A stretch of 64,000 nucleotides of DNA from a virus, in the IMG/VR virus record IMGVR_UViG_3300031999_000008, positions 1-64,000 of that record, one strand, 5' to 3'. The notes under the pieces were generated by a model. That model had not been told where the DNA came from. It made no database searches and saw nothing but the letters and a program-made list of their open reading frames with translations. This document shows positions 13,143 to 63,751 of this stretch, piece by piece (the stretch's first letter is position 1; the number at the start of each line of letters is the position of its first letter). Both the position numbers and the translations under genes were made by a program.

Positions 13143-13826
13143 ATGCGCGCTAATACTTCTGCAGACTCGCTATCGCGTTACTACAAAGAAGTCGAGTCGA
13201 CGCGAATGCTAACCGCAGAGGTAGAGCGCGAGCTCATCCAACGGTACAAAGAAACGAAAGACCCCAAGGCCCGCGACCTGATTGTGCAAGGTGCACTCCG
13301 GTACGTAATAGCTGAAGCTCGCAAGCATCCTCGAAGTAGGATAGAGCGATCCATTCTCGAAGACCTCATCGCTGCGGGGAATATAGGGCTCATACGAGCG
13401 CTCACTAAATTCAAACCCGAGGCGGGTACCCGCTTTCTGACATACGCTAGCTGGTGGGTACGCCACGAGATGCGTGAAGAAGGTCGACGTCTCGGTTTAG
13501 TACATGTGCCGGCGCATGCCATTGCTAAAGGCTTGCGCACGCCGCACACCACCGAGTACGTCGAGAATATCGTCGGAGACGCAGATACCAACTTAGAAGG
13601 CTATGCAGTCGATATCGAAATGCAGCAAAGCCTTCTAAAATTGTTCCAACTAACAGACCTCTCTATACGGGAGGTCTTCATCATTAAAACGTCGTTCGGC
13701 ATCCACACAGCGCCTAAGACGTTAAAACAAATAGGACGCGTATTGGAGATTACAGGTGAACGCGTGCGTCAGCTACGGGAAACAGCCGTTACCAAACTAC
13801 GCTCGGCTGCCTCCCGTTTTGTCTGA
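13143..13826 (+). CDS. Sigma70-family factor (RpoD/RpoS/RpoH type; regions 1.2, 2 and 4)
   Basis: DSLSRYYKEV; DLIAAGNIGLIRALTKF..RFLTYASWWVR; TLKQIG..ITGERVRQL. Confidence 0.92.
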   Translation: MRANTSADSLSRYYKEVESTRMLTAEVERELIQRYKETKDPKARDLIVQGALRYVIAEARKHPRSRIERSILEDLIAAGNIGLIRALTKFKPEAGTRFLTYASWWVRHEMREEGRRLGLVHVPAHAIAKGLRTPHTTEYVENIVGDADTNLEGYAVDIEMQQSLLKLFQLTDLSIREVFIIKTSFGIHTAPKTLKQIGRVLEITGERVRQLRETAVTKLRSAASRFV

Positions 13827-17130: not shown

Positions 17131-17574
17131 TTATGTACGCTTCTCCATGTTGCGGCTTTGACGAACTATTTTCTCAATGCTACTGACTGCTGCCTCGTCC
17201 TCGCTCGCCACCGCCCGGATAGCCGGCTTGGCGCGCGTGACTTCTGTACGCCCCATGCGCGGCGTCGGGTCCATGAGGTCATTCAGAGTCAACGAGACTC
17301 CATCAGGCTCCCGCGACACGTCTTCCTCCGCGTCCTCGTCGGTATACGTTACAACATCTTCTGTTGGAACAACGTCTACGTACCCCAACGTATGTACGGG
17401 AGCCGGCGCAGGCTGCGGCAGAATGTCCGCCTCTACTTTCAAACCAATCGGGTATGCGTGCAGAAATTGTCGACATATGTCGTCAAGATTCTTTACGTTA
17501 AAACTCTCCTTCGTAAAATGATCTGTGATCATTTGTCGTAAATCAGCCTCTTCGAATTCCAGGGTTATTTTCAC
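17131..17574 (-). CDS. Hypothetical protein
   Basis: GTGA overlap with the helicase stop. Confidence 0.65.
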   Translation of the reverse strand: MKITLEFEEADLRQMITDHFTKESFNVKNLDDICRQFLHAYPIGLKVEADILPQPAPAPVHTLGYVDVVPTEDVVTYTDEDAEEDVSREPDGVSLTLNDLMDPTPRMGRTEVTRAKPAIRAVASEDEAAVSSIEKIVRQSRNMEKRT

Positions 17575-19475
17575 GGTATGGTCCTTACACTTGCGGTGTG
17601 CCGCAGCATGGTGCGGTCATACTTACATTCTTTGTCGTACAGTTTAATCTTGTATTTGTTGCACCGCGTATAAAAATCAGGACACGTGGCGCACACCGTC
17701 GCAGATGTTACGAGCAGACTGAAATCTATTTTCTGATCTAATGCTTTAGCCTTCGCGTCATCCAACGTATATCGCCCTAAGAGACGATAAACAGTGACTT
17801 TACGTGATTGGCCAATACGGTAGTTGCGATCTAAGGACTGTAAGTAATGCTCCAGGCTCCAGGGCAAATTGTAGTAAATGGTGTAATTCGCGGCATTGAG
17901 CGTTACGCCAACGCCTGTACTGACTTGTGCTAAATAAATCCGACAGATAGGGTCCGTGTTAAAGGTAGTCATCGCGGACATCAAGTCCTCACGAGCCATA
18001 CCGCCTTGAACACGTACATACTGTATACCAGACTCTTTTACCGCATTTTCGATGTCATCGAGCTCAGTGTGGAAATTAGCCCAGATGATCACTTTATTCG
18101 CTGGGTCTTCTAGAATAGTTTCGAGTAAGCCCTTACACCGATCTAGACGTGCATTCGATTTGCAGTGATGAACTGCCGTCGGAGGTTGCTTTGTTACGAT
18201 TTTACACGTTTGCGTGTACGGTTTTATACCGTCATCCACACAATTAATAACGTGTTTACAACCATTGCACAGCCCTGGGTTACGCGTAGTCATGTACACG
18301 AAGCCGCTGCTAATTTGATCGACTTTGCCTAGCAACGTGATCGTCTCATCGGCTATCACGTGCGGAGGCGTCGTTAGGCCATCTGCATGCGATAACGTAC
18401 CGTCGAGCATACGGTCTTTCAACGAAAGGCCTGCGCCCATACACCGATCTTGAACCAGCGTGTTGTATTCCTTCTTCTGGTCAGGAAACAACGCGAAATG
18501 CTCGTCGATAATTTGTTGTGCAGGTAAATCTAAGCACTCTTCCTTAGTCTTCTTCAGACTTACAAGGCTGACGCGCTCATTCATGAGCTCCAGGTTTTTA
18601 AATCCGAGTAACATCTTAGGTACGTTATCGTCTTTTTCCCACTCAGGGAAAACACCGAACATCTTACGAAAAGCCCACCAGTTTTCGGGACACAGATACG
18701 TGCCTAGAAATCGCAACTGCGCGTACATATCAAAGGGCGACCCCAGCGATGGCGTGCCCGATAGCAATACACGGCGCTTGGCTCTCAATGCCAGCGTTGT
18801 TACGGCTTTAGTCCGATTTGAAAATGGAGTTTTTAACTGATGCGACTCATCCGCGATGATGGCATCGTAACCTATTTTCAACAATTCGTCGGTATACAGG
18901 GACGCGACGGTGTAGGTGACAATCGTCGCAATCGGCGTGTGTTGCTGCGCTTGGTGGATGCGTGTGGTCTTCTCTTTTTTAGAGCCGTCGATAATTAAGA
19001 CGTCAGAGATCTCCCCGTGCTTCTGAAATTCGTCCGCCCACGTGCCCAGCATCACCAACGGACATACGACCAACATCTTGGCACCCGTGAGACGCTGTAA
19101 GTCCACGGTTATCTTACATTTACCTAAGCCAGGTGAATAGAAGAGACCTGCCCGGAGATTGCGGTAAAGATGCAGAACCCCCGCTTTCTGATGTTGGTAA
19201 GGCGGCGTAATGAAACTAAAATCGGCAGGTAGCGTTACGTCTTGTGCGAGCTGCTGTACGTGATGAAGTACTTCGGGTGAGCACTGCAGCCCTGGGATCT
19301 GTTTCTTCAAGTCCTCCAGCACAATCGCATGCACCGGATAGAAAGCAGGGAAACGCCAGGTGTTCGACGCTCCCGAAAAAGTTGCCCCGTATACTTTTTT
19401 AACTGCCGCTGACTGGCATTGCAGTGTAAATATCGGGGTACCGTAAACAGTTCCGAGTTTTAACGTGTCTGTCAC
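17571..19475 (-). CDS. SNF2-family DExH helicase with two Cys-cluster inserts
   Basis: PGLGKC, IADESH, LSGTP, GVGVTL, QSLDRNYRIGQ. Confidence 0.9.
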   Translation of the reverse strand: MTDTLKLGTVYGTPIFTLQCQSAAVKKVYGATFSGASNTWRFPAFYPVHAIVLEDLKKQIPGLQCSPEVLHHVQQLAQDVTLPADFSFITPPYQHQKAGVLHLYRNLRAGLFYSPGLGKCKITVDLQRLTGAKMLVVCPLVMLGTWADEFQKHGEISDVLIIDGSKKEKTTRIHQAQQHTPIATIVTYTVASLYTDELLKIGYDAIIADESHQLKTPFSNRTKAVTTLALRAKRRVLLSGTPSLGSPFDMYAQLRFLGTYLCPENWWAFRKMFGVFPEWEKDDNVPKMLLGFKNLELMNERVSLVSLKKTKEECLDLPAQQIIDEHFALFPDQKKEYNTLVQDRCMGAGLSLKDRMLDGTLSHADGLTTPPHVIADETITLLGKVDQISSGFVYMTTRNPGLCNGCKHVINCVDDGIKPYTQTCKIVTKQPPTAVHHCKSNARLDRCKGLLETILEDPANKVIIWANFHTELDDIENAVKESGIQYVRVQGGMAREDLMSAMTTFNTDPICRIYLAQVSTGVGVTLNAANYTIYYNLPWSLEHYLQSLDRNYRIGQSRKVTVYRLLGRYTLDDAKAKALDQKIDFSLLVTSATVCATCPDFYTRCNKYKIKLYDKECKYDRTMLRHTASVRTIP

Positions 19476-19501: not shown

Positions 19502-21232
19502 ATGTCTGAACCAGGAATCGCGGATCTAGCAGGCGGCGGGGCACGCGGCGGCGGTAGCCATCCCAACCCAATGTTCGATTTTATTACGGGCTTTGCCCCC
19601 CGTAAGCTCAAGGACCTATTTCGCTGGGTTGAGTACCTTTACTACAACTCAGCCCACATTTTCGCAGCGTTAAAGAAGTTCTCGGAATACCCGATTACGG
19701 AAGTCTCGATCAAGTCGAATGACGAGTCTTTAACACAAAATTGGGAACGCGTACTTAACAAATCGATCAAGATAAAGAACATAGCCATTGCTACGGGCCT
19801 GGACCTCCACCTGTATGGCAACTCGTTTATCTCGGTTTACCAGCCGTTCAACAGATTTCTAATCTGCACGAAATGCAACGCGCGTACGGGTGTCCGCAAG
19901 GTCAAGTACAAATTCAATCTCAAATCCCTGAGCTTCAACTATCACTGTCCAGGGTGTCACTCCGCTGTCTCTGGCAAAATGCATGACGAGAAGGCCGCGG
20001 ACGAAACTCGGATAAATATTATCCGTTGGGACCCGAAGTTAATCGACATCAACCACAACCCCATCACCGGGGAGTCTATCTACTACTACACGATCCCCCA
20101 AGACTTAAAGCACAAAGTCGAAAAGGGTGACGCGCACATCATCAACACGATGCCGATTGAGTTCCTGAAGGCTATCAAAGATAACAAGGTCTTTGAATTT
20201 GCTGAAGGCCAAGTCTATCACATGAAGATAGACCCCCCAGCGGGCATCTCGTCGCAATGGGGATTTCCGCCTCTTACAACCACTATCAAACTATTCTTCT
20301 ACACAGCAGTGTTGCGTAAGGCTAACGAAGCCATCGCGTTTGAACACATTGTACCGTTTAGAGTACTACATCCTGCACCCGTCAGCGGCGCTGCTGATCC
20401 CGCCCAGATGATAAATCTGATGAAATGGCGGCAGGAGCTCACCGCAAATATCAAGCGTTGGCGGCGAGATCCTTTGCACATCATGTTCGCCCCTGCGGCC
20501 CTTGGCGTAACCATGATGGGCGGCCAGGGTCGCTCATTACTGACCCTCGGCGAGATTAAAGAAGCCGAAGAGGAAATCATCGCAGCTATGGGAATTCCGC
20601 GAGAATTCTTGTATGGCGGACTTTCCTTTAGCGGCTCGTCTATTACGCTGCGTATGCTTGAAAATCAGCTTGAAACGTATACGTCGCACCTCAACGAACA
20701 ACTGAATTGGATTATCAAGCAGACTTCGAAGATCCTCGGTTGGAAAACGGCAGAAGCTGAGTATCTGCCGTTCAAGCTCGTCGATGATACGGTGCAAAAG
20801 CAAATGGAACTGCAGTTGCAACAAATAACAGGGAACATGATTTCCAATACGTCGTTGCTCGAAGTTAGTGACCGGGACATCAACGAAGAACGTGAGAAGC
20901 GTAAGCAAGAAGCGCTTGACGAAGCGCGTATGCAACAAGATTTGCAACTGCAAATTCAGAAGATGCAGACATCAATTACGTCGCAAGCCCAGCAAGAATC
21001 TGCAAACGGGCAGGGATTGTCATATAACCCTACGGCTGTAATCGCCCAAGCGGAACAATTAGTACAGCAAATCAGCCAATCCGACCCCGCTACGCAGAAA
21101 TCCATGCTGTCGCAGCTATCCCAAGAAGACCCCGTCATGTATGCTGTCGTGAAAGACCGTTGGCAAACAATGCAAACGGTACAGAAACAACAAGCAACAG
21201 CCACAATGGCTAATGGGGCCGCACCGCAATGA
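19502..21232 (+). CDS. Portal protein (putative) with Zn-finger insert and Gln-rich C-terminus
   Basis: Size, helical pattern, YGNSF and GIPREFL portal-like motifs, CxxC..CxxC, late-strand position. Confidence 0.7.
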   Translation: MSEPGIADLAGGGARGGGSHPNPMFDFITGFAPRKLKDLFRWVEYLYYNSAHIFAALKKFSEYPITEVSIKSNDESLTQNWERVLNKSIKIKNIAIATGLDLHLYGNSFISVYQPFNRFLICTKCNARTGVRKVKYKFNLKSLSFNYHCPGCHSAVSGKMHDEKAADETRINIIRWDPKLIDINHNPITGESIYYYTIPQDLKHKVEKGDAHIINTMPIEFLKAIKDNKVFEFAEGQVYHMKIDPPAGISSQWGFPPLTTTIKLFFYTAVLRKANEAIAFEHIVPFRVLHPAPVSGAADPAQMINLMKWRQELTANIKRWRRDPLHIMFAPAALGVTMMGGQGRSLLTLGEIKEAEEEIIAAMGIPREFLYGGLSFSGSSITLRMLENQLETYTSHLNEQLNWIIKQTSKILGWKTAEAEYLPFKLVDDTVQKQMELQLQQITGNMISNTSLLEVSDRDINEEREKRKQEALDEARMQQDLQLQIQKMQTSITSQAQQESANGQGLSYNPTAVIAQAEQLVQQISQSDPATQKSMLSQLSQEDPVMYAVVKDRWQTMQTVQKQQATATMANGAAPQ

Positions 21233-21816: not shown

Positions 21817-22542
21817 TCAGCTCTCTCCTGCTGGAGACAGTGTTTGTGCCACCAGCTGCTGTATTTTCTCAATGTCCGTGTGTTTCACGGCAGGGTTTGA
21901 AATAGAGCGCTTAGGGTGGGGCGGCTGACTGGATCGTTGTGGGGGTCGGTTAGACGGCCTCGAAGCCTGATCCTGTTGGAAACAGTGTTGGCAGAATTTC
22001 CGACTCCCATGTACCCATTGAAGCCCCCGGTACAATACGGGTGCGACCTCGCTCAACACGACGGTCTGCACTTTGGGACATCGGGTACACCCGAATGTCT
22101 CAACAATAATGTTTTCCCAACCACGGGGATTTTTCTTACGAAGAAAATCCACCGTTTCCTGCGTAGGATCACGCAGCCACACGCCGATTTCGGTGACCCG
22201 AAAGCACGTGCAGAACTCTTCCATGTGCACAGGCAATTCCCGTACACACAACGAACAGTAGGCGCGCGTTTCACGCCCTACATCCAGCCCCCAGATGATC
22301 CGGTAAAACTGCGCCAGCTCACATAGCTGCGTTACCGTAAAGTCTCGTCCCCCTTTGTGACAGTTCACTTGGGCCTGTTCGTAGGCCCCCCGACTTACTT
22401 CTTTGACGATCATCATCGCCATGCGCTGATCAACCCCCGCAAACAGCTCCGCCAAGAGCAGTGCTTGCTGATTCAGCTTTACTAGCGCCTCGTAGCTAGC
22501 AGTTTCCAATCCGTCCTCCTCTTTCAAGTAAGCAGGCACCAT
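21817..22542 (-). CDS. Cys-rich (Zn-finger) early protein
   Basis: CSLC..CTC, CTRC..CQHC; the listed GTG at 22569 lies inside a promoter-like GGTAAAAG, so ATG 22542 is preferred. Confidence 0.65.
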   Translation of the reverse strand: MVPAYLKEEDGLETASYEALVKLNQQALLLAELFAGVDQRMAMMIVKEVSRGAYEQAQVNCHKGGRDFTVTQLCELAQFYRIIWGLDVGRETRAYCSLCVRELPVHMEEFCTCFRVTEIGVWLRDPTQETVDFLRKKNPRGWENIIVETFGCTRCPKVQTVVLSEVAPVLYRGLQWVHGSRKFCQHCFQQDQASRPSNRPPQRSSQPPHPKRSISNPAVKHTDIEKIQQLVAQTLSPAGES

Positions 22543-22575
22543 AAAGGTGTCTACATATACTTTTACCACTAACAG

Positions 22576-22605
22576 TTGCTGTATTAGGAGCGGACCGCGT
22601 ATACT
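22576..22605 (+). promoter_or_regulatory. Sigma70-like promoter for the RNAP operon
   Basis: TTGCTG-N18-TATACT, 9 nt before the ATG. Confidence 0.5.
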
Positions 22606-22614
22606 AGGGCAGCT

Positions 22615-25600
22615 ATGCCGCCCAAATTACAGCCTTTATTAGCCGATGCCGACGAACGCCGTGAGCAGATTCGTCAGAAGACAATGGCAGGTCTCAACGC
22701 ATTGTTTCCTCTTGTAGGGAAAAACTCGACGGTCGAGATAAAGGATATTGGCATATCCAAAAAAGATTACTCTCAGGCAGAGCAAAAAGAAGCGCTGATG
22801 AGCGGGCGTACGCTACACGAAGCCATCCAAGGCACCATGGTTCTACGCGATAACCGTACGGGTAAAGTGTTAGACCAGCAAAAGCGAACGCTATTACACC
22901 TACCGTATTTTACTAAGCGTTACACGTTTATCGTTGGCGGTATTGAGTATGATATCCCGAGTCAGTTGCGCCTCAAGCCGGGTGTGTATACCCGCGAACG
23001 CAACAACGGTGAATACGAAGCAGCCTTCAATTTGAGCAAAGGTTCGAACTTTCGTCTCTCGATGGAACCGGAGTCAGGCCGGATTCATATGGAGTTAGGC
23101 GCTTCAAAGATCCCGTTATACTCGTTATTACGCTCACTCGGCGTGCCTGATACGGAAATCAAATCGTACTGGGGTACGGAGCTCAAGGACGTAAACGCCG
23201 CCTCGTCTAAGGACAAAGAAGAGATCATACTCAATAAAATACTGCTGAAAATTAAACGTCCCCGCGATGTACTGCCTACGACCTTAGAAGGTAAGCGCGA
23301 GTTCGTACATAATTACTTCGATAATACCGCGATGGATCCTGAGGTCAATGCGCGCACCCTCGGCAAGCCATTAGCGAAGGCCAACGCTACCGCTCTGCTT
23401 ACCGCTTCCAAGAAGCTCATAGACGTACAGAAAGGGTTGGCTGACGAAGACGACCGCGATAGTCTTGAATTCAAGACGATACATTCCGCGGATGACTTCT
23501 TTAAAGAGCGTTTGGATATCGATGCAAAGCGCACGATTGCCAAAAAGCTCACCATGCGTCTCAATCAGGCTAAAGAAAATGACCTGAAAACAATCATACC
23601 TAATTCAGTGTTTACCAAATCTATCAATTCATTCTTGACTAGTGCCGCTATTTCTTCGAGTCCTACCCAAATCAACCCCATGGAGATTATTGACCATGCG
23701 GGTAAAATAACGTCACTCGGCGAAGGCGGCATTACTAACGACCGCGCTGTGCCTTACGAATCGCGTAAGGTCCATAATACCCACTTTGGTATCCTCGATC
23801 CTGTACGTACCGCAGACGGTGCCAACGCGGGTATTGTGATCCACAGCAGTTTGTCAGGGCACCGCGACGCGGCTGGCAATATGTACGCGTATATGAAAGA
23901 TATGCGTACAGATAAAATGACGCACGTGCCCGTCATGACTTTAGCCAAAAGTGTTGTTGGGTTTTCTAACCAAGAACACCGTACGCACTGGGACGCGATT
24001 AAAGGCTCGGAAACGGTATCCGTACCGAAAAAAGATGTCGATTACATGATGCCGGATTCCATGTACATGCTGGGTCCCGCAACGTCATTGGTTCCCTTTC
24101 TAAATGGCATGCAGGGAAACCGCGCCATTATGGGATCTAAATTCCAGACACAGGCGCTGCCCTTAATCGAACGCGAAGCGCCGTACGTGCAAGCGATGGG
24201 CCCCTATAAGGGGGTCAGCATGGAAAAAGAATTAGCCATGCTAGTATTGCCCACATCCCCCGTACATGGGACCGTGGACCACATTGACGAACACTATATA
24301 CATATTCGTCCCGACAAAGAGAAGACCGCAGCGGCAGGTCCTACGCTTATCAAAGTGCCTTACAGCACGTATTTTCCATTAGCGTCTAAAACGTACCTAC
24401 ATGATGATCTCAACGTCAAAGCCGGCGACAAGGTAAAGAAAGACCAGACGCTAGCAGACTCGAATTTTACGAAGCACGGAGCGCTAGCGCTAGGTAAGAA
24501 CCTGTCCGTCGCGTACATGGCTTATTACGGCAAGAATTCTAACGACGCTGTTGTAATTAGCGAAGACGCGTCGAAAAAGCTGATCTCAGAACACATGTAT
24601 AAGGAATCTTTGCAAAAAGGCCCCGACGTAGTCTTGGGCAAAGCCAAATACGTTGCGTATTTCGGTGTCCAATACACTGAAGAACAGTTAAACAAACTGG
24701 ACGACGCGGGCGTAGCTAAGAAAGACGCGCACCTCAATAAAGGTGACCCTGTGATCCTGGGACTGCGTAAAGCCGCGCCTACGCCTGAGTCTGCGCTGTT
24801 AGGCAATTTTCATAAGTCGTTGGTGAGGCCGTACCGCGACGTAACCGTAACGTGGGACCATGATTCCCCCGGCGTGGTTCAGGACGTAGCCAATGTGGCA
24901 CGTCAGGTCATGGTCACCGTACGTACGCAAGAAGTAATGAAAGTGGGCGATAAACTCGCTAATCGGTTTGGTGGTAAAGGTGTTGTCTCCGAGATCGTCC
25001 CCAACGAACGCATGGTTAAGGACGAGAGCGGTAAGCCTATCGACGTACTATTTACTTCCGCGGGCATCGTTAGCCGTATTAACCCCAACCAAGTCGTGGA
25101 AGCCGCTCTCGGTAAAGTCGTTGAGAAGACGGGTAAGCCTATCGTCGTACCCCAGTTTAACCCTGAAGATAACGTTAAATACGCAAAGAGACTGCTTAAA
25201 GAACACGGTATTAAAGACAAAGAAACTGTGTACGACCCCGTTTCCGGCAAGCACATTCCCAACATATTCGTTGGGCGCTCATTTATACACAAGCTATTCA
25301 AGTCCACAGAGACTAACTATTCCGCACGCGGTGTGTCCGCCTATGACATCAATCTCCAGCCTACCAAAGGCGGGGATGAGGGTGCCAAAGGTCTCGGGCG
25401 TATGGAAATAAACGCACTTCTTGCGCATAATGCACGTAACGTTCTGAAAGAATCACTCACTCTAAAAAGCGAGAAAAGCGATGACTTCTGGCGTGCGTAC
25501 GAATTTGGCTTGCCGGCTCCGCCGCCTAAGACGCCATTTGTTTCTGAAAAATTCATGGCGATGCTTAAAGGGGCGGGGATAAATATACAGAAAGAAGGCC

Positions 25601-27009
25601 CGCACGTCACACTCGGGCCCATGACGGATAAGACTGTGAAAGAACTCTCTTCCGGCGCTTTAAGTGTTCCGAGTCTAGAGAAGTCCAAATCGTTCATGGT
25701 TAACGCCAAGAATATGAGCCCCGAAGACGGAGGGCTATTCGATCCTGCTCTAACCGGCGGCATGGGTGGCACGAAGTGGTCTCATATGGCGCTTAGTGAA
25801 CCTATCGTGAATCCTATTTTTGAGGATTCGGTGCGGCGTCTGTTGAGCATGTCGAAGAAACAACTGCGCGAAGAAATTGGTAAAGTAGGCGGAGGCGGGA
25901 TCAAGTCCCAGTTAAATAAACTGGACCTGACAAAGCTAGCCCAAGACTTGCGAGAACAGACCAAGTCTAAGCGGGGGTCTGATCTAGATAACGCAGTAAA
26001 AAAGCTCAAATATGTAGAAGCGTTAAAGGCCGGTGGTTTCTCGAAAGCTGGTGACGCATACACCTTGAGCAACTTAGCGGTAGTGCCTCCTGTGATGCGT
26101 CCTATTCTGCCGTCGAATAAGGGCAACGAGTTGCAGATATCCGATATCAATTATCTATATCGAGATGTCGGGCTTGCGAGCTCAGCACTCGCTAACAGTA
26201 AAGAAACTGAAGTGCCTTCGCTTATGCAAGAAGCCAGGCACCATTTGCATGACACGGTAGGCGCCCTATTCGGGGTACAAAAACCGACGAGTCCGCAGCT
26301 CTTGGGGCGTGAGGCAAAAGGCTTCATTGAACAGATCACAGGATCTGGCTCACCCAAAAGCGGTTTCTTGCACAAGAAAATTCTCAAGAGACAACAAGAC
26401 TTATCCGGTCGCGCTACAGCGACGCCTGACGCCACTCTCAACATCGACCAAATCGGTGTGCCAGAGGACATGCTCTGGACTACTTACTCTAAATTCATAA
26501 TGCGTGGGCTTATCAACCAAGGCTACAAACCGCTAGACGCACGGGAGATGATTGAAAATCGGCACGTAGCTGCACAGAACATTCTCAACAGAGAAATTAC
26601 ACAACGGCCCATGTTCGTGAACCGTGCACCGTCCCTCCACAAGCACAATGTGGTCGCAGCGTACCCTGTGTCTGTTCCGGGTAAGTCTCTCCGCGTCAAT
26701 CCGTTTATGGAAACCGGCATGAACCTGGATTACGACGGGGACGCTATGCAGCTCTACGTGCCCGTGTCGGAACCGGCTGTTGAAGAAGCGCGCAACCTGA
26801 CGCTCTCCAACCTGTTGTTCAGTGACAAGAATCCTAACGATCTCATGGTCTTTCCGCAGCACGAGGCCATTCTAGGTACTTACCTTGCGACGCACCACAA
26901 AGATGCCGGCCCTGTGCGTAAGTACAAAACAAAGAAAGAAGCGATGGCCGCTTACCATAGTGGGGAGATCACTATGAATACTCCTGTCGAAATACTAGAA
27001 TCGGCCTAG
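22615..27009 (+). CDS. rpoB-rpoC1: DNA-directed RNA polymerase, beta subunit fused to the N-terminal half of beta'
   Basis: beta motifs SQLRLKPGVY, GDKLANRFGGKG, SRIN, LGRMEINAL, GINI (~25590); beta' motifs VPPVMRP, SDINYLY, SGR, NRAPSLH and catalytic NLDYDGD (26722-26742). Confidence 0.95.
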   Translation: MPPKLQPLLADADERREQIRQKTMAGLNALFPLVGKNSTVEIKDIGISKKDYSQAEQKEALMSGRTLHEAIQGTMVLRDNRTGKVLDQQKRTLLHLPYFTKRYTFIVGGIEYDIPSQLRLKPGVYTRERNNGEYEAAFNLSKGSNFRLSMEPESGRIHMELGASKIPLYSLLRSLGVPDTEIKSYWGTELKDVNAASSKDKEEIILNKILLKIKRPRDVLPTTLEGKREFVHNYFDNTAMDPEVNARTLGKPLAKANATALLTASKKLIDVQKGLADEDDRDSLEFKTIHSADDFFKERLDIDAKRTIAKKLTMRLNQAKENDLKTIIPNSVFTKSINSFLTSAAISSSPTQINPMEIIDHAGKITSLGEGGITNDRAVPYESRKVHNTHFGILDPVRTADGANAGIVIHSSLSGHRDAAGNMYAYMKDMRTDKMTHVPVMTLAKSVVGFSNQEHRTHWDAIKGSETVSVPKKDVDYMMPDSMYMLGPATSLVPFLNGMQGNRAIMGSKFQTQALPLIEREAPYVQAMGPYKGVSMEKELAMLVLPTSPVHGTVDHIDEHYIHIRPDKEKTAAAGPTLIKVPYSTYFPLASKTYLHDDLNVKAGDKVKKDQTLADSNFTKHGALALGKNLSVAYMAYYGKNSNDAVVISEDASKKLISEHMYKESLQKGPDVVLGKAKYVAYFGVQYTEEQLNKLDDAGVAKKDAHLNKGDPVILGLRKAAPTPESALLGNFHKSLVRPYRDVTVTWDHDSPGVVQDVANVARQVMVTVRTQEVMKVGDKLANRFGGKGVVSEIVPNERMVKDESGKPIDVLFTSAGIVSRINPNQVVEAALGKVVEKTGKPIVVPQFNPEDNVKYAKRLLKEHGIKDKETVYDPVSGKHIPNIFVGRSFIHKLFKSTETNYSARGVSAYDINLQPTKGGDEGAKGLGRMEINALLAHNARNVLKESLTLKSEKSDDFWRAYEFGLPAPPPKTPFVSEKFMAMLKGAGINIQKEGPHVTLGPMTDKTVKELSSGALSVPSLEKSKSFMVNAKNMSPEDGGLFDPALTGGMGGTKWSHMALSEPIVNPIFEDSVRRLLSMSKKQLREEIGKVGGGGIKSQLNKLDLTKLAQDLREQTKSKRGSDLDNAVKKLKYVEALKAGGFSKAGDAYTLSNLAVVPPVMRPILPSNKGNELQISDINYLYRDVGLASSALANSKETEVPSLMQEARHHLHDTVGALFGVQKPTSPQLLGREAKGFIEQITGSGSPKSGFLHKKILKRQQDLSGRATATPDATLNIDQIGVPEDMLWTTYSKFIMRGLINQGYKPLDAREMIENRHVAAQNILNREITQRPMFVNRAPSLHKHNVVAAYPVSVPGKSLRVNPFMETGMNLDYDGDAMQLYVPVSEPAVEEARNLTLSNLLFSDKNPNDLMVFPQHEAILGTYLATHHKDAGPVRKYKTKKEAMAAYHSGEITMNTPVEILESA

Positions 27010-27022
27010 TATCGAGGCACCC

Positions 27023-27346
27023 ATGCCCTTCAAGAGTGAGAGACAAAGACGTCTGTTCCATGTCAAAGCCGACAAGGGTGAAATCCCCCAATCAACGGTT
27101 AGCGAGTGGGAACACGCTACTAAAAATAAGAAGGCCCTCCCTGAGCACGTAGCTAAGGAAGCCTACGCTCAAGGCAAAAGAGCAGCAGCTGTCAAAGTAG
27201 GCTTCATGGAAGACGTAGATCCTGAAGACTTACCTGCGCCGTTAAAGCATCGTAAAGAAAAATATCTACGTGAGTTGTATCGACTAAACGCAGCCACGGG
27301 ATTGCCTGCTGGCGGACTTATTTCGGAGGATTCCCGTGAAAGCTAA
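27023..27346 (+). CDS. Small virion-type protein (MPFKSERQRR start, internal leader-like motif)
   Basis: Contains KEAYAQGKRAAAVKVG. Confidence 0.7.
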   Translation: MPFKSERQRRLFHVKADKGEIPQSTVSEWEHATKNKKALPEHVAKEAYAQGKRAAAVKVGFMEDVDPEDLPAPLKHRKEKYLRELYRLNAATGLPAGGLISEDSRES

Positions 27347-27803
27347 GACGTCTATGTTCGCAGTTGTGGCTATGGCCTCGTTTCTGTTGGCTGGTTGTGA
27401 CTTCCTAAAAACAACGACGGGCCAAGCCATCATGGACTACGTACTTCAAGCGGTTGTTCTTATCGTGACGCCTGTCGTGTTACTGCTCGCTAAACGCGTT
27501 GTACAGATTGTCGAACAAAAGACAGGTTTAGCCGCTTCAGCGCACCAGCTAGCCCTCGTAGACGACGCTGTGTATAAAGGCGTTGCCTACGCGGAAGAGC
27601 AGGGCCGTAAAGCCTTTAAAGTCAACGAGCCTATTCCTGACGGGAATATGAAGCGGCAAATGGCAACTGAATTTGCATTGGATATGGTAAAGAACCACAA
27701 TGCAGCCGAAATTAGCCGCGACTACCTACTGAAGATGGTCGAAGCACACGTAAACCTTGCCCGGGATCCCGCCGATAAGAAGGTAGCCAATGCGCCTGTA
27801 TAA
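27336..27803 (+). CDS. Holin-like membrane protein (LL-H type) with lipobox
   Basis: Signal peptide ending LAGC, a TM helix, and V..AEEQ..G..K motif. Confidence 0.55.
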   Translation: MKAKTSMFAVVAMASFLLAGCDFLKTTTGQAIMDYVLQAVVLIVTPVVLLLAKRVVQIVEQKTGLAASAHQLALVDDAVYKGVAYAEEQGRKAFKVNEPIPDGNMKRQMATEFALDMVKNHNAAEISRDYLLKMVEAHVNLARDPADKKVANAPV

Positions 27804-28032
27804 CCATGGCCGTAGAGCGCTACTCATGAAGCTAGGGCTCGACGCCGAAGCGTTCACCCAAATGGTTCAACAAGACGATACTGCTGACTTCGTAAATCAA
27901 AATACGACGTCTAAAGACATGAACCAGAATCTGGATAAAGCGCCTGCATGGGGTAGCCAGAGCTCCATGGAAGCTGGCGACGCAGGCACTCGCAATTACC
28001 AGATGGGTCTTCCTCGCGCAGGCGCGGTGTAG
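27790..28032 (+). CDS. Small leader-bearing cargo protein
   Basis: N-terminus YNHGRRALLMKLG. Confidence 0.65.
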   Translation: MRLYNHGRRALLMKLGLDAEAFTQMVQQDDTADFVNQNTTSKDMNQNLDKAPAWGSQSSMEAGDAGTRNYQMGLPRAGAV

Positions 28033-29843
28033 TGTCTAAAACGCTGGGTCAGTATTTGTTGGATGGGGCGATACCCGTTGGGTACCGCCCTAAAGACGTA
28101 TATTCTAAGTCCGATCTACGTAGCAATATGCTGCGATTAGCTAAGGATGATCCAGCGCGTTACACAAAAACAATTACAGAAGTAAAGCGTTTAGGCGATG
28201 AATTCGCCACTAATTTAGGTATATCAGTAGGCCTTGATGATATCGAGCCCTTGTATAAAACACGCGACGCCATTACCAAGCCCGCGTTGGCTCGCGTTAA
28301 AAAAGCCAAGACCAAAACAGAGCGGCAAGACATTATCTCGGAAACTCAGGATAAACTCCTAGAGTACGCCATGAAGCACCCAGGAACCATGGGTGAAATG
28401 GCACGGTCCGGCGCACGGGGTAGCTCGCTCCAACTCATGCGTGCCGTAGGCGCACCCGCCGCAAGTAGCGACGAAAAAGATGATCTACAAGGTTGGCTGA
28501 CAACGCACAGTTATGCGGAAGGCCTTCGTCCTTCAGAGTGGTGGGCCAATAACCGTGAAGCCCGAATGGCTGCGGTAAAGACTCAGAATGAGGTCATGGA
28601 GCCCGGCGATTTATCTAAGATTTTGATCAACAATACCAGTGATCAAATCGTGACTATATCGGATTGTGGCACCAAAAACGGCCTACTTATAGCGCTTACG
28701 GATTCACATATTCTAGATCGCTTTACGGCACGCACCGAACACGGACTGCCTCGCAATACGCTCATGACTCCCCGGGTTGTAAGCACGCTACAGCAGCAAA
28801 AAGTCGAACGCATGTTGATGCGGTCACCTATGACTTGCGAAGCGCAGCACGGCATCTGCCAACATTGTGCAGGTTTGAGTACGCTCGGCGTCATTAACAA
28901 GATCGGTGAAAATTTAGGCATTCGTGCAAGCCAGTCGTTAGGGGAACCCCTTACGCAACTCGCGCTGAATGCTAAACACGGCGTCCGTCTTTCAGGTGCT
29001 AACCCGCTAGAAACCACCGGGCTAGAGGGCTTTCGCAAGCTGCTAGAATCCCCTGCGTCCTTCAAGAATAAAGCGACGCTCGCTCCTGAAGACGGCGTCG
29101 TTACCGCGATTTCAAAAGCACCTCAGGGTGGCTATTACGTCACGGTCAACGAAAGTAAGACGTACGTGTCCCAGGGGTTAAAACCTACTGTCTCTATAGG
29201 CACGACCGTCCATGCTGGCGACGTTCTATCTGAGGGGACGCCGCGCCCCGATGAGGTTGTGCATTACAAAGGCCTCGGCGCAGGCCGTGCCTACCTCGTG
29301 AATAAGCTCGGCGGCATCTACAAAGATAGCAAAATAAACGTAGATCGTCGGCATTTTGAAGTACTCGCGAAGTCTACGCTCAACCACGTACGTATTGAGG
29401 ACGTGGACGATGCTGACTCTGCGGCACATGGTCTCGTACGTGGTGATGTAATCGACTACAACCGTTATCGTAATATCGTGGGCGACAAGACACAGCACAC
29501 GGATATAGATAACGCTGAAGGTAAGTACCTCGGTGAGGGTGTATTGCACCATTTGGCAGGTACGCAGATTACGCAGCCAATGCTAGCTGAAATAAAAGAT
29601 GCCGGATTTACTAAGGTACGCACGGCTAGCCAGGCGCCTGTTGTGTCTGCGGTCATCGCGCCTGCGACGCGTAATCCTCTGTTGAATCCCGACTGGCTTG
29701 TTCGGATGGGACATCGTTATTTGAAGCAGTCCCTTTTAGAGGGAGCCCAAAAGGGACAAACTTCTAACATTCACGGCACGAGTCCGGTCCCCGGTCTCGT
29801 ATTCAGCGGGGAATTCGGTGAGGGTGAAAATGGCCAATACTAA
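28032..29843 (+). CDS. rpoC2: RNA polymerase beta' C-terminal half (bridge helix, trigger loop, Zn site)
   Basis: GISVGLDD, SGARGS, SYAEGL, DCGT..RSPMTC..GICQHC, SQSLGEPLTQL..H, DRRHFEV. Confidence 0.93.
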   Translation: MSKTLGQYLLDGAIPVGYRPKDVYSKSDLRSNMLRLAKDDPARYTKTITEVKRLGDEFATNLGISVGLDDIEPLYKTRDAITKPALARVKKAKTKTERQDIISETQDKLLEYAMKHPGTMGEMARSGARGSSLQLMRAVGAPAASSDEKDDLQGWLTTHSYAEGLRPSEWWANNREARMAAVKTQNEVMEPGDLSKILINNTSDQIVTISDCGTKNGLLIALTDSHILDRFTARTEHGLPRNTLMTPRVVSTLQQQKVERMLMRSPMTCEAQHGICQHCAGLSTLGVINKIGENLGIRASQSLGEPLTQLALNAKHGVRLSGANPLETTGLEGFRKLLESPASFKNKATLAPEDGVVTAISKAPQGGYYVTVNESKTYVSQGLKPTVSIGTTVHAGDVLSEGTPRPDEVVHYKGLGAGRAYLVNKLGGIYKDSKINVDRRHFEVLAKSTLNHVRIEDVDDADSAAHGLVRGDVIDYNRYRNIVGDKTQHTDIDNAEGKYLGEGVLHHLAGTQITQPMLAEIKDAGFTKVRTASQAPVVSAVIAPATRNPLLNPDWLVRMGHRYLKQSLLEGAQKGQTSNIHGTSPVPGLVFSGEFGEGENGQY

Positions 29844-30222
29844 TTATTACGAAGCGGGGCGTAGCGCCGCGCGAGCCCGTTTTGAGAAAACAGCTTTGAT
29901 CGGCGCAGCCATTGGTGCCATGAAGGCCAAAGAAATGAATCCCAAAGATCCTCAACTCTTTCCCGGTGCTATTGCGGGTGAGTTAGGTGGTTTGGGTGGC
30001 ATGGCGCTCGGACAAACCGTAGGGGCTGTAGGCGGAGGCTTAGTGGGAGCTGCCGCAGGTATTCCACTGAGCATCCTGCTCAAAAAACCCGAACTACTTT
30101 CACATCTCGCAAACGCCGGTGCAATGGTGGGTATGGTAGGCGGCGGCATCGGGGGCTTTGTGCACGGCGCTAGGCGCTTGCCCGAAGCGGTCCTTAAAGA
30201 TACCCGTAAGCCAAAGAAGTAA
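29830..30222 (+). CDS. Leader-bearing glycine-zipper protein (cargo allele A)
   Basis: ATG overlaps the RNAP stop; MANTNYYEAGRSAARARFEKTA followed by GxxxG repeats. Confidence 0.75.
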   Translation: MANTNYYEAGRSAARARFEKTALIGAAIGAMKAKEMNPKDPQLFPGAIAGELGGLGGMALGQTVGAVGGGLVGAAAGIPLSILLKKPELLSHLANAGAMVGMVGGGIGGFVHGARRLPEAVLKDTRKPKK

Positions 30223-30252
30223 AACCGAGTATGTTCCTGAACACAACAGTTA

Positions 30253-30346
30253 TTGGGCTAGACAATCAACCAGCCTATGATTAACGTGCGGCCTCTAGAG
30301 ACGCAGAGAGCTACCATGTCGAATTCACCGTTTTTTAAGCGAGCCC
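30253..30346 (+). repeat. Copy 1 of ~95-bp repeat (promoter plus 5' end of gene 31155)
   Basis: Near-identical to 31092-31185; contains TTGGGC-N17-TATGAT and ATGTCGAATTCACCG. Confidence 0.9.
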
Positions 30347-30404
30347 TGTGCTCGGTCTATTCTTCAGCAGTGAATTCGGAGAGGGGACCGATGGCAAATA
30401 TTGA
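30342..30404 (+). pseudogene. Fossil 3' end of a homologous RNAP beta'-C gene
   Basis: Translates SPVLGLFFSSEFGEGTDGKY* versus SPVPGLVFSGEFGEGENGQY* at 29781-29843. Confidence 0.85.
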
Positions 30405-31062
30405 CTATATCGCCGGTTCCGACGCTGCTGCGTATACTTTTTTAAAAACGGCAGTGACGCCGGCTTGGATTAAAGATCGTCTACGTAATGTCAGGTACGC
30501 TCTAAATGCGGATGAAGTCGCCGAGGTAGGACGTCCCGCTTTGACGTCAATCGCTAAGCGGCTTAACAACTCTATGAAATCAAATGACTCTGTGTTAAAT
30601 AATCTCGAACCACTTGTACAACACGAGTACAAACAAAATAGGTTTAAGGTTATTATGGGTACCAATGCTCCGGGTACGTACCCACATCATCAGGGTGATC
30701 ATACTAACTATACAAACTTTTTAAATAGTGCCGGCCGGCGTACTGGCGTATTGGGAACAGCGCCCGTTACGCCCCACGGCGAATACGTTTACGAACGTAT
30801 GCCGAGTCTATACGCTTGGGATAAACGTAAGACACTGAATATGCGACTCGAACAATTGCGACGGCAACTGGATGCTAGCGTGGCGCAGAGTGCGCCTAAG
30901 CTGAATAAACCGCTACCACCAACGCCGGCCGCAACACCCGCAGTAGCAGGTCCTCTGCGTAATCCGTTTAAACTAAGAGCGCAGTTAACGCCAAGTCCGT
31001 ACGCGGACGGCCGTTTTAATCACACGCGCCCCCAAATTCCACAACCCGTGCCCTACCGCTAG
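30391..31062 (+). CDS. Leader-bearing protein of unknown function (cargo allele B)
   Basis: MANIDYIAGSDAAAYTFLKTA leader, GGAG RBS; in-frame upstream ATG at 30316. Confidence 0.7.
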   Translation: MANIDYIAGSDAAAYTFLKTAVTPAWIKDRLRNVRYALNADEVAEVGRPALTSIAKRLNNSMKSNDSVLNNLEPLVQHEYKQNRFKVIMGTNAPGTYPHHQGDHTNYTNFLNSAGRRTGVLGTAPVTPHGEYVYERMPSLYAWDKRKTLNMRLEQLRRQLDASVAQSAPKLNKPLPPTPAATPAVAGPLRNPFKLRAQLTPSPYADGRFNHTRPQIPQPVPYR

Positions 31063-31091: not shown

Positions 31092-31120
31092 TTGGACTAG
31101 ACAATCAACCAGCCTATGAT
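31092..31120 (+). promoter_or_regulatory. Late-type sigma70-like promoter
   Basis: TTGGAC-N17-TATGAT. Confidence 0.65.
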
Positions 31121-31154
31121 TAACGCGATGCCTCTAGAGGAGCAGAGATCTACC

Positions 31155-32423
31155 ATGTCGAATTCACCGCTTTTTAAGCGAGCCTTTGTTCGCGGACTGA
31201 ACGCCGAGCTCATCCGCCAGGGCACCGTTGTGTATCCTTCTAAGGAAGCAGCGGATGCGTCGGCCGACTATGTCGCGGATCAATCAGGCATGCCCGACCC
31301 CTATTTTGAGGGCGAAGCGCTTGACATCAAGACGGCGGGCACTCTCTGCGAGTACCTCATCAAAGCGGCTGAATATCAGTGCCAGCAAGCCGGGGATAAG
31401 TACAACCCGACCGTGACTAAGACGGCGCAGGAAAGCACGCCTGTGGCTGTTGCCACTCACGACGCCTGGGCGTTGATGGAAAAGGCTGCATCGGAGACGG
31501 GCTCTCTTGTTGAAGGCGGCAAAGATCCGAACACAGAGCCGGACGCCGCTCGCGACAACGCCGAAGCCGCACTGGATATGAAGAATCGTCCCCAGGGTTA
31601 TGCGCACCTCGGCGAAAAAGGCGTTGGCAATTACGAGGATCCCAGCGAGGGAACCGTAGGCCACCAAGCGAAGCATCCGATGGCTCCCGGCGCTACGGGA
31701 CACGATACAAATTCGCTCAACAAGGGTGCGTCTCTGTCGGAGATCGTCCGTCGCGTTGGCACCAAGACGGCTGCCGGTACGGGCACGCTCGTTACTGGCG
31801 GCACGCAACCCAACACGTTGGCGGCTGCGGCGCAGCATGAGTCGTTGGCTGCGCTTGAGCAGAAAAATCGTCCCGAAGGCTACGCTCACCGCGGTGAGAA
31901 GGCTGTCGGAACCACGGAGTTTAAGATTCCGTCGAGCGCTGTGATGGGTCATGAGCAACCGCACCCGCACGTTCCGGGTGCCACTGCATCGGGCAGCAAC
32001 TCGATCATTGCGCAGACCAAGAACGCTTTCGATCAACTCTTCGCCAAGACGGCAGAGCAGGTTGTTCCGTATCTCCCCGAGAATATGGACGACAACATGA
32101 AGGTTGGCCACGTCCGCGCAATGCTCGGATTAGAGACGTCTGAGCGCGCCGATTACCTCGGCAATCTGTACTCCTCGTTGGGTGCCCAGAAGGAAGCTGC
32201 GGAGTCGGTGCGGGATCATTTCCGTAAGTCGGCGGCGCATGCCGAGCCCGATGGTGATGAGTGTGAGTCGACCGATAAAGCCGCCCCCATGTTTCCTCCC
32301 GCGATGAAGGCGCATGAGAAGACGGAATCCAAGAAGGAAGAAGCTGCTGAAAAGGAAGCTTCTGCGGCGCCTACGCGAGCCCTCACAGGCCTGCGCGACC
32401 GGCTTGCTAACCTGAGTCGCTAA
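31155..32423 (+). CDS. Inner-head polyprotein with two ~78-aa repeats and many K-x-A sites
   Basis: Repeats KNRPQGYAHLGEK / KNRPEGYAHRGEK; strong codon bias; the listed ATG at 31116 lies in the -10 box. Confidence 0.8.
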   Translation: MSNSPLFKRAFVRGLNAELIRQGTVVYPSKEAADASADYVADQSGMPDPYFEGEALDIKTAGTLCEYLIKAAEYQCQQAGDKYNPTVTKTAQESTPVAVATHDAWALMEKAASETGSLVEGGKDPNTEPDAARDNAEAALDMKNRPQGYAHLGEKGVGNYEDPSEGTVGHQAKHPMAPGATGHDTNSLNKGASLSEIVRRVGTKTAAGTGTLVTGGTQPNTLAAAAQHESLAALEQKNRPEGYAHRGEKAVGTTEFKIPSSAVMGHEQPHPHVPGATASGSNSIIAQTKNAFDQLFAKTAEQVVPYLPENMDDNMKVGHVRAMLGLETSERADYLGNLYSSLGAQKEAAESVRDHFRKSAAHAEPDGDECESTDKAAPMFPPAMKAHEKTESKKEEAAEKEASAAPTRALTGLRDRLANLSR

Positions 32424-37700: not shown

Positions 37701-38326
37701 GCCGGTTTGATGAAACCGTGACGAAGATTGCCGCGTCACAGGTAAAAACGGCGTTGATCGCACAACTGCCTTCGCTGTTGAACGCTGAAGCAAAGCCTAA
37801 GCACGCTGGGCGTGCCGAGACTGCGTTAGAAAAAGAAGCAGGCATTTTTGAGCATGTTTTTGGCCACGGTAAAGAAATCTCAGGTGCTCAAACTATCGCA
37901 CGTGCTATCGCGGGTGGTGTAGGCACCGCCGCGGTTATTGGCGGTGGTACATATGCGGTTGGTCGCGCGCTAGATAAAGCAAACGCAGCCAGCGAGACGC
38001 TTACGTCGCAGCGCCAGCAAATCGGTAAGCTCAAGGGCGAACAAACTTTTCGCCACAGCTTAAATGCTAAGCTCGCGCCCATGCATGTTAAAGTGTTTGC
38101 GGCTATTAAGAAAGATCCGGTCATTGCCAAGGCGGACCACGCGCTTATTCATTCGTCTTACGAAACGATGAAGCGCTTTGCCCCGCACTTAGCCGCTGAT
38201 GAAAATGCAGCGCGTAGCTTCTTGCGTGAAAACGCAATCTACGGCACGGGTCCGAGTTACGCTTCGTTGAAGAACCTCGCCGACGCTGAGCAATCGGTTG
38301 GCAAAGCTAGCGGTCTGGGAGGCTGA
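37697..38326 (+). CDS. Head protein with K-x-A leader and glycine-zipper/TM segment
   Basis: KIA, KTA, KHA, KEA, then AIAGGVGTAAVIGGG. Confidence 0.78.
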   Translation: MSRFDETVTKIAASQVKTALIAQLPSLLNAEAKPKHAGRAETALEKEAGIFEHVFGHGKEISGAQTIARAIAGGVGTAAVIGGGTYAVGRALDKANAASETLTSQRQQIGKLKGEQTFRHSLNAKLAPMHVKVFAAIKKDPVIAKADHALIHSSYETMKRFAPHLAADENAARSFLRENAIYGTGPSYASLKNLADAEQSVGKASGLGG

Positions 38327-38327
38327 A

Positions 38328-63315: not shown

Positions 63316-63336
63316 GTTTACTCAGACTATACATAG

Positions 63337-63408
63337 TGGGTCCGGCGGAAGTCGAATCCGCAATAAACAGGTTAAAAGCCTGCTGTCCTACCGTTGGACT
63401 ACGGACCC
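63337..63408 (-). tRNA. tRNA-Lys (TTT), CCA not encoded
   Basis: GGGTCCG acceptor stem, anticodon arm CAGG-CTTTTAA-CCTG, T-arm GCGGA-TTCGACT-TCCGC. Confidence 0.9.
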
Positions 63409-63652: not shown

Positions 63653-63679
63653 TAATAAATCTCCGAATTAAAGAAACGG

Positions 63680-63751
63680 TGGGCCTACTTGGACTCGAAC
63701 CAAGAACGTTCCACTTATGAGGTGGGGGCTCGACCATTGAGCTATAGGCCC
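63680..63751 (-). tRNA. tRNA with CAT anticodon, probably Ile2 (lysidine) rather than Met
   Basis: GGGCCTA acceptor stem with C4-G69/C5-G68, CCAC-CTCATAA-GTGG, GTTCGAGTC. Confidence 0.88.

Follow-up and report, generated by a model that had tools for sequence, protein, structure and literature searches.

A putative two-chain RNA polymerase core of bacterial type in an uncultured phage and its relatives

Introduction

What kind of transcription enzyme is encoded where the beta subunit of a multisubunit RNA polymerase (RNAP) runs without interruption into the first half of beta', and the second half of beta' is found in a gene of its own? The question is raised by two genes at positions 22615 to 29843 of a 64,000-nucleotide stretch of viral DNA, here called the window, which comprises positions 1–64,000 of IMG/VR record IMGVR_UViG_3300031999_000008. 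The record is 90,903 bp long and is estimated by CheckV to be ~51% complete, and its source is an uncultured phage of the ~180 kb genome size class. To our knowledge, the alpha dimer is regarded as the universal assembly platform of cellular RNAPs, and the only alpha-free multisubunit enzymes known to us are those of the phiKZ/AR9 type, which are too divergent for easy comparison with bacterial RNAP. An original prediction, made from the letters of the window alone, described the locus as a streamlined, bacterial-like phage multisubunit RNAP, and this description is sustained by the Pfam and PDB matches and by the family-wide losses documented below.

We conclude, with a probability of about 80%, that the phage owns a DNA-dependent RNAP of bacterial type whose catalytic core is composed of two polypeptides, the products of these genes. 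Chain 1 consists of beta joined head to tail with residues ~19–554 of beta' and supplies the barrels, clamp helices, lid and flap, and chain 2 supplies beta' from residue ~570 to its end. Phage sigma factors would direct this core to promoters, and the phage would transcribe its genes independently of the host RNAP.

Results

Layout of the two genes

The longer gene is one continuous open reading frame (ORF) in which Pfam places Rpb2_3 and Rpb2_6 at residues 352–919, followed by Rpb1_1 and Rpb1_2 at residues 1118–1396 (E-values of 1.4e-45 for Rpb2_6 and 3.5e-21 for Rpb1_2), and the shorter chain matches Rpb1_5 at residues 164–461 (1.3e-17). The top PDB matches of chain 1 are bacterial beta subunits, including Thermus 1iw7_C at E 4e-73 and cyanobacterial 8gzg_C over residues 77–992; the same chain also matches bacterial beta' N-halves (E 4e-42), and chain 2 matches beta' C-halves (E 1.5e-39). 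An AlphaFold2 model of the beta' N-half (residues 1001–1464) has a mean predicted local distance difference test score (pLDDT) of 85.3, and a Foldseek search with it returns bacterial beta' and cyanobacterial gamma/RpoC1 as the best structures (E ~1e-32). Both double-psi barrels, the clamp helices and the lid are all on chain 1, and the bridge helix, trigger loop and Zn2 site are on chain 2 (Table 1). That beta continues into beta', bringing both barrels into one 1464-residue chain, had been read from the letters of the window, and ORF, Pfam and alignment agree on it; the placement of bridge helix and trigger loop in a second gene beyond three ORFs is likewise borne out by the ORF at 28032–29843 and its Rpb1_5 match. 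The phage beta and beta' are about 27–28% identical to bacterial rpoB–rpoC, and a megablast search of positions 22000–30500 against GenBank phages gave no near-identical DNA. One RNAP set per genome was found in the window's record and in the relatives searched. A 20-residue tblastn match of the beta' C-terminal tail at 30342–30401 proved spurious, being out of frame with the local ORF.

Residues are numbered as in E. coli, by way of the Salmonella RpoB and RpoC encoded in one record (L007) of the phage collection. Alignment to these subunits, which the original prediction had proposed as a check, gave the junction, the zinc-ribbon gap and the split point. At the junction the beta C-terminus runs directly, with no linker, into beta' at about residue 19. 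Further along, the Cys4 zinc ribbon of beta' (residues ~66–97) has given way to a five-residue glycine loop, GGMGG, a replacement that had been anticipated and that is seen as a 32-residue gap in a chain that lacks cysteine altogether. All 50 aligned phage forms have the gap (50/50), and none of the four bacterial beta' does (0/4). The second chain has exactly four cysteines, and these are the Zn2 ligands. The enzyme has, among the defining features of bacterial-type RNAP, the beta barrel lysines, the DxDGD barrel of beta', the bridge helix and trigger-loop histidine, and Zn2, and it lacks the N-terminal zinc-binding domain of beta' (Cys4, Zn1).

Elements through which a sigma factor would be used are predicted as well. 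The clamp helices align with their bacterial counterparts and are modelled as two long helices (H177–198 and H201–219, pLDDT above 90), and phage sigma genes are present. In the beta portion, TPESALLGNFHKS is presumably the equivalent of the E. coli beta flap tip EEKLLRAIFGEK.

The trigger loop of the window reads LNAKH, compared with MRTFH in bacteria. Its LN had been called Pol II-like, which holds for the window and its subclade and not as a general trait, since Arash has LGTKH, the cultured two-chain phages LGTKH or LSTKH, and the single-chain forms MRTFH or LKTFH (these relatives are described below). Chain 1 stops at about beta' E554 and chain 2 begins at about K570, in a loop that is variable or even deleted in relatives. 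The offsets of the PDB alignments put the start of chain 2 at 8–15 residues ahead of residue 1 of cyanobacterial RpoC2, in agreement with the predicted proximity of the split to the cyanobacterial point. As judged by alignment, the split site is near the cyanobacterial and phiKZ site and is not identical to it.

Table 1. Positions, in window coordinates, of the polymerase genes, their conserved elements and associated genes
Feature	Position	Strand	Basis or remark
Fused RNAP chain, complete beta then N-terminal half of beta'	22615..27009	+	Continuous ORF, 1464 aa, ATG start; Pfam and PDB matches
Beta portion, residues 1–996	22615..25602	+	Alignment; PDB beta chains cover residues 77–992
Beta double-psi barrel motif GDKLANRFGGKG, two catalytic lysines	24946..24981 (residues 778–789)	+	Inside Rpb2_6 match
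Probable beta flap-tip helix TPESALLGNFHKS, sigma region 4 docking site	24781..24819	+	Sequence; equivalence presumed
GAGINIQKEGP, end of beta	25570–25602 (residues 986–996)	+	Aligns with Salmonella ..GINIELEDE
Beta' N-half, residues 997–1464, E. coli beta' ~19 to ~554	25603..27006	+	Alignments, AlphaFold2 model
Deleted beta' zinc-ribbon site GGLFDPALTGGMGGTKWSHMAL	25729..25794	+	32-residue gap at C70, C72, C85, C88
Lid, retained	26080–26112	+	Just upstream of clamp helices
Clamp helices (coiled-coil), sigma region 2 docking site	26137..26274	+	Aligns with Salmonella beta' ~262–310
Catalytic Mg-binding motif NLDYDGD (bacterial NADFDGD)	26722..26742 (residues 1370–1376)	+	Alignment
Spacer, three small ORFs of 107, 155 and 80 aa	27023–27346, 27336–27803, 27790–28032	+	Between the RNAP genes
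Beta' C-half, 603 aa, GTG start, E. coli beta' ~570 to C-terminus without SI3 insert	28032..29843	+	Pfam, PDB, split-site alignment
Bridge helix region, diverged	28548..28634	+	Alignment
Zn2 site, DCGT and C-x6-C-x2-C, E. coli C814, C888, C895, C898	28662..28868	+	The chain's only four Cys
Trigger loop GEPLTQLALNAKHGV	28941..28985 (residues 304–318 of second chain)	+	His invariant, LN in place of bacterial MR
Phage sigma-70-family factor, 227 aa, regions 2 and 4	13143..13826	+	Pfam, PHROG; ortholog of Arash gp196
SNF2-family helicase	17571..19475	-	Pfam SNF2-rel_dom and Helicase_C; homologs at the same position in Arash, D69 and L008
Portal protein	19502..21232	+	33% identical to annotated Arash portal gp204 over 558 aa

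Relatives and the order of fusion and split

The family was searched with residues 900–1464 of the fused chain as query. Among the best 120 clusters (49–90% identity), 119 have both beta and beta' N-half domains and none has Rpb1_5; their proteins range from ~1454 to 2133 aa, the longer ones carrying inteins and the few shorter ones being fragments, and their contigs reach 207 kb. In GenBank phages the two-chain layout occurs only in Salmonella phage Arash and Vibrio phages D69, D148 and D181 (GenBank OQ632216, OZ195729, OZ196545 and OZ196140, respectively). Arash gp206 (1525 aa) and gp216 (606 aa) are the same two chains, with the junction, stop position and zinc-ribbon loss of the window, and Arash and the Vibrio phages share with the window the synteny of helicase, portal and RNAP genes, have sigma genes, and are without alpha and omega. 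Their chains are 33–35% (chain 1) and 28–30% (chain 2) identical to those of the window and differ from them by an extra insert of ~45 residues after the zipper. Chain 1 stops at an identical position in 20 of 20 two-chain forms compared, and the window has the arrangement of the Arash-like clade throughout: beta fused to beta' ~19–554, a separate beta' from ~570 to the end, and the same break.

The original prediction would have lost its point had this architecture already been described for a characterized clade, and this is so in part. The genes are annotated in cultured Arash, and the fusion and split went unrecognized there; the Arash paper names gp206 and gp216 beta and beta prime, with no remark on fusion or split (PMC10585845). 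The full-text literature searched, with subscription journals outside its scope, contained no description of a fused-and-split or single-chain beta–beta' phage family.

With chain 2 as query, a search for longer proteins found many single-chain beta–beta' forms of ~2000 aa (up to ~2900 aa with inteins) on contigs of 160–210 kb, and one of these, P0145, is colinear with chain 1 followed by chain 2. The single-chain forms (P0145 and P0178, for example) agree with the window in where beta meets beta' and in lacking both beta' residues 1–18 and the zinc ribbon; their beta' is unsplit, and the bacterial versions of the trigger loop (MRTFH) and catalytic motif (NADFDGD) are retained in many of them. 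When 161 residues across the junction were used as query, 947 cluster representatives (50% identity) scored E<=1e-10, many of them single-chain; of the 150 matches listed, most cover the greater part of the query and extend through the junction. The GenBank phage set has no cultured single-chain member. Ralstonia phage RP13, with a gene labelled 'beta/beta prime', was considered as a further fusion and rejected, the gene being a 486-aa fragment of phiKZ type.

Since the junction and the zinc-ribbon loss are common to single- and two-chain forms, a single ancestral fusion and deletion with a later split is the most parsimonious history. By parsimony we infer one beta–beta' fusion and one zinc-ribbon loss in the family ancestor, followed by one split of beta'. 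This split would have arisen in the common lineage of the window phage, Arash and the Vibrio phages, within the variable loop and 8–15 residues before the point at which cyanobacteria divide beta'. The layout originally proposed, a fusion of beta with the beta' N-half and a separate beta' C-half, stands as a description; given the large single-chain family with the same junction and loss, it is better read, on the same argument from parsimony, as the secondary split of an ancestral full fusion. In a quick maximum-likelihood tree of the beta' N-half that included 15 bacterial beta', all phage forms are joined against the bacterial sequences with support of 100, the two-chain forms including Arash and D69 make up one clade (Shimodaira–Hasegawa-like approximate likelihood ratio test 94), and this clade is nested among the single-chain forms. 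The nesting was not upheld, as an approximately unbiased (AU) test scored the tree with a single-chain clan better (log-likelihood difference, lnL, +17; p-AU 0.87).

A group I intron or trans-splicing might have accounted for the separation of the two genes in the window; it was rejected, because positions 26900–28150 have no match in Rfam, to a group I intron or otherwise. The split is real at the protein level, given this lack of an intron and the arrangement in Arash, where 4.7 kb of DNA with genes on both strands separates the two RNAP genes.

Elsewhere in the family, inteins are common in the RNAP genes, and the fused gene of Vibrio phage D181 is interrupted by a group I intron with a homing endonuclease (RF00028, 100.7 bits; L015 4533–4813), so that these RNAP genes are clearly targets of mobile elements. 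The D181 record labels the exons as separate hypothetical proteins; the fused gene of D148 is probably interrupted by an intron in the same way, and that of D69 has none. Chain 2 also has longer relatives (P0122–P0125; 1076–1263 aa, 41–44% identical) with a C-terminal extension, two of the four with GNAT acetyltransferase domains (PF00583, PF13508).

Alpha, omega and sigma

Alpha was sought with models PF01000 and PF01193, and omega with PF01192, in six-frame searches at E<=1, under which 14 of 14 control genomes scored. There was no match in the 90.9-kb record, itself ~51% complete, nor in the complete genomes of Arash (180,819 bp), D69 (186,708 bp) and G001 (179,934 bp). The last of these, an IMG/VR genome with terminal repeats that is rated 100% complete, is the closest complete relative, with an RNAP 65–68% identical to that of the window. 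The claim that no alpha is encoded is thus upheld in the record and in three complete relatives. Judging from these sequences, the core would assemble without alpha and omega, and the covalent link between beta and beta' may partly take over the scaffolding job of alpha. Helicobacter keeps alpha despite its fusion. The fusion is not needed to explain the absence of alpha, since the phiKZ and AR9 RNAPs are without alpha and without any fusion (PMC7598289).

The sigma factor encoded upstream of the RNAP genes matches Pfam Sigma70_r2 (E 4e-11) and r4 (E 6e-8) and the PHROG sigma family (E 8e-28), and it is 42.6% identical to Arash gp196, which occupies the same relative position. Sigma genes are also found in D69, G001 and G003. 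An ortholog of the virion sigma of Arash, Gp10, is not in the 90.9-kb fragment, a result that is uninformative because half of the genome is missing. In its inventory the original prediction had the RNAP genes and overlooked both the sigma gene at 13143–13826 and the Arash virion proteome.

Comparison with known polymerases

Each half of the rearrangement has a cellular likeness. In the RpoBC proteins of Helicobacter and Wolbachia the beta C-terminus is joined to the beta' N-terminus, as in phage chain 1; in these bacteria the fused protein is full length, the zinc ribbon is still there, and the enzyme functions together with alpha2 and omega. In cyanobacteria and plastids beta' is split after the catalytic barrel into RpoC1 (gamma) and RpoC2, as in the phage, and the gamma chains 8gzh_D and 9dvs_D are matched over most of their length by the model of the phage beta' N-half. 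Unlike the phage, cyanobacteria have a separate beta, and zinc ribbon, alpha and omega are all present. The cyanobacterial split is an event independent of that in the phage.

Among viral enzymes, the phiKZ/AR9 virion and non-virion RNAPs (vRNAP and nvRNAP) are free of alpha and omega and have beta' split after the barrel, with one set carried in virions, and the phiKZ split of beta' is said to coincide with the cyanobacterial site (PMC7598289). In the phiKZ type, however, beta is split too (4–5 chains), nothing is fused, there is no sigma, and each genome has two sets versus one here. The marks of that type, namely beta in 2–3 chains, no sigma and two paralogous sets, are not those of the window. 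The phiKZ-type enzymes are also far more distant from it, YerA41 being 22.6% identical and AR9 matching at E 5e-8 only, and these values, with beta in several chains, agree with the earlier statement that phiKZ and AR9 enzymes are more divergent and fragmented.

The mReC phages (Weinheimer & Aylward 2020, PMC7481178) resemble the window phage in being tailed and uncultured and in having a beta and beta' that are cellular-like and can be aligned. On the mReC contigs listed, beta (~920–1560 aa) and beta' (~900–1370 aa) are distinct proteins, the filter that defined them called for an 800-aa beta' carrying NADxDGD, and 'fused' in that paper applies only to crAssphage (PMC7481178). With a beta' C-half of 603 aa and the motif NLDYDGD, the window enzyme fails this filter. 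Membership in the mReC group was considered and rejected: the subunits there are separate, and the contig numbers of three relatives appear in the mReC tables only as non-RNAP references.

Neighbouring genes and other observations

The RNAP genes sit in the head module on the late strand, with the SNF2 helicase and portal genes before them and a head-protease-like gene after them, and this order is kept in relatives; in G001, too, the helicase adjoins the portal/RNAP block. A Swi2/Snf2 helicase is likewise linked to the RNAP genes of phiKZ-type phages (PMC7824862), and we speculate that the helicase may be a transcription accessory. The three spacer ORFs are poorly conserved or absent in relatives and are probably not RNAP subunits; as candidates for hidden subunits they were rejected because they are not conserved. 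The second of them (155 aa, 27336–27803) has a lipobox-like N-terminus (LLAGC), one strong hydrophobic or transmembrane segment and weak holin-family matches, and a membrane protein would not be expected beside polymerase genes.

Beyond the RNAP genes, those at 30277..31062 (261 aa) and 31116..32423 (435 aa) have an identical 19-nt leader, CTAGACAATCAACCAGCCT, directly before the ATG (two copies, 0 expected); the leader regions compared are window positions 30258–30350 and 31097–31190. The encoded proteins begin with a near-identical peptide of ~24 residues, MIN..PLE.QR.TMSNSP.FKRA, and the two elements may represent a translation leader and a propeptide that head proteins have in common. In addition, GTAAAACC recurs ~45 nt upstream of both of these late genes (30277 and 31116).

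The motif EK[TS]A is found five times in the ORFs of the record, compared with 1.1 expected from shuffles (maximum 6 in 200). One site is at 24313–24342 (residues 567–576 of the fused chain) and the others are in the ORFs 8005–11409(-), 29818–30222, 38298–39005 and 40920–41495; in three of the five the motif is at residues 17–24 of the protein. Its place in the RNAP is a surface loop of beta that varies in sequence, with K-T-A-A conserved there within the subclade and missing from Arash and D69. The motif could be a head-protease site.

Small, divergently arranged genes at 57,000–90,900 of the record are preceded by extended -10-like sequences, GGTATAAT, TGGTATAAA and TGGTAAAAT, with examples upstream of 57998–58579(-), 58720–59232(-), 66574–67131(-) and 88530–88694(-). 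By their sequence these look like sigma70-type early promoters. A tRNA cluster includes tRNA-Lys UUU and tRNA-Met CAU at 63336–63408 and 63678–63751 (-), and more tRNA-like sequences are present at about 65–69 kb of the record.

Discussion

The conserved catalytic elements and the recurrence of the layout in cultured phages argue for a phage-owned RNAP core of two chains, and the question that follows is when in infection such a core would act. The virion proteome of Arash, from a sucrose gradient preparation, bears directly on this point. Gp206 is its most-detected protein (128 unique peptides, 3516 spectra), above the major capsid protein with 1333 spectra, and both Gp216 (40 unique peptides, 1210 spectra) and the sigma factor Gp10 (24 unique peptides, 467 spectra) are detected with it, all three being among the most abundant virion proteins (PMC10585845). 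The Arash proteome, the presence of the genes among head genes and the finding of just one RNAP set in each genome together lead us to favor, though without great confidence, packing of the RNAP into the virion with a sigma factor and its injection into the host. The enzyme would probably be packaged with one sigma for early transcription, and another sigma would re-program it later. A stronger form of the proposal, in which one or two chains and a phage sigma make up a minimal self-sufficient holoenzyme, lacking alpha, omega and zinc ribbon, that is loaded into the capsid, injected, and free of host RNAP from the first minute, is put forward tentatively and at somewhat less than even odds.

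The abundance of Gp206 might instead reflect carry-over of a large, highly expressed complex, the RNAP being a non-virion enzyme made after infection for middle and late transcription. The Arash preparation did include metabolic enzymes and 43% of all encoded proteins (PMC10585845), and the sigma70-like extended -10 promoters before small early genes in the 57–90 kb region, as well as the absence from virions of gp196, the ortholog of the window's sigma, are in keeping with such an enzyme. Carry-over sits poorly with the excess of Gp206 spectra over those of the capsid protein (3516 vs 1333; PMC10585845) and with the location of the genes among head genes on the late strand in genomes with one RNAP set only. 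Also difficult for it is the EK[TS]A motif, which the RNAP has in a beta loop conserved in the subclade and shares with the N-terminal regions of neighbouring head-module proteins. On balance we regard a purely non-virion role as unlikely.

A different alternative concerns subunit composition and not timing. The two phage chains could assemble on the host alpha dimer, and on omega, giving a hybrid enzyme with a phage-specific core. Every cellular RNAP depends on alpha as a platform, the divergence of phage beta and beta' from bacterial rpoB–rpoC is no more than moderate (about 27–28% identity), and no substitute scaffold protein has been identified, the adjoining small ORFs not being conserved; phage sigma factors that borrow the host core provide a precedent. 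The published Arash virion table is confined to phage proteins and does not bear on whether host alpha is present in virions (PMC10585845). However, the hosts differ widely, from Salmonella and Vibrio to those of environmental metagenomes, which would make docking to each alpha demanding, and phiKZ and AR9 show that alpha-free multisubunit cores exist (PMC7598289). We therefore consider the hybrid enzyme improbable. A frameshifted, mis-assembled or decaying rpoB/rpoC, or a cellular rpoBC of the Helicobacter type taken for phage, has nothing but the unusual layout to recommend it and is already refuted by the same junction and stop in independent assemblies and cultured phages at 33–90% identity, the flanking phage genes (portal, head protease-like, SNF2 helicase), the intact catalytic motifs, and the peptides of both proteins detected in Arash (PMC10585845).

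Several points nonetheless count against the phage-owned two-chain core, its packaging or its proposed history. The bridge helix is present in the alignment but diverged, and both the activity of either chain and assembly without host alpha and omega are predictions from sequence. Searches with hidden Markov models could miss a very divergent alpha-like scaffold, and the window's own genome is just ~51% complete. The Arash virions were purified by sucrose only, with 116 of 272 proteins detected, ribonucleotide reductases among them, and the authors note possible carry-over; gp196, the counterpart of the window's sigma, is absent from their virion list (PMC10585845). The sigma70-like extended -10 sequences before small early genes would fit equally well with transcription of the early genes by host RNAP. 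Finally, the AU test did not reject the single-chain forms as a separate clan, and the fusion-first order rests on parsimony.

An important consequence of the two-chain, phage-owned reading is that it describes a phage family whose RNAP can be aligned residue by residue with the bacterial enzyme, keeps the predicted sigma-docking elements and is accompanied by sigma factors, yet has lost alpha, omega and the zinc ribbon and occurs both as one chain and as two. Such a family is a natural minimal system for asking what alpha, omega and the zinc-binding domain are needed for, how a split in beta' is tolerated, and whether a sigma-type holoenzyme can be virion cargo. The cultured members, Arash on Salmonella Typhimurium ATCC 14028 and the Vibrio phages, make these questions directly testable. 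A compact sigma-programmable RNAP encoded by one or two genes is also a possible orthogonal transcription tool. If the stronger, holoenzyme form of the proposal is true, the enzyme would be the first sigma-dependent virion RNAP, and the family would provide a natural test of whether covalent beta–beta' linkage replaces the conserved alpha platform.

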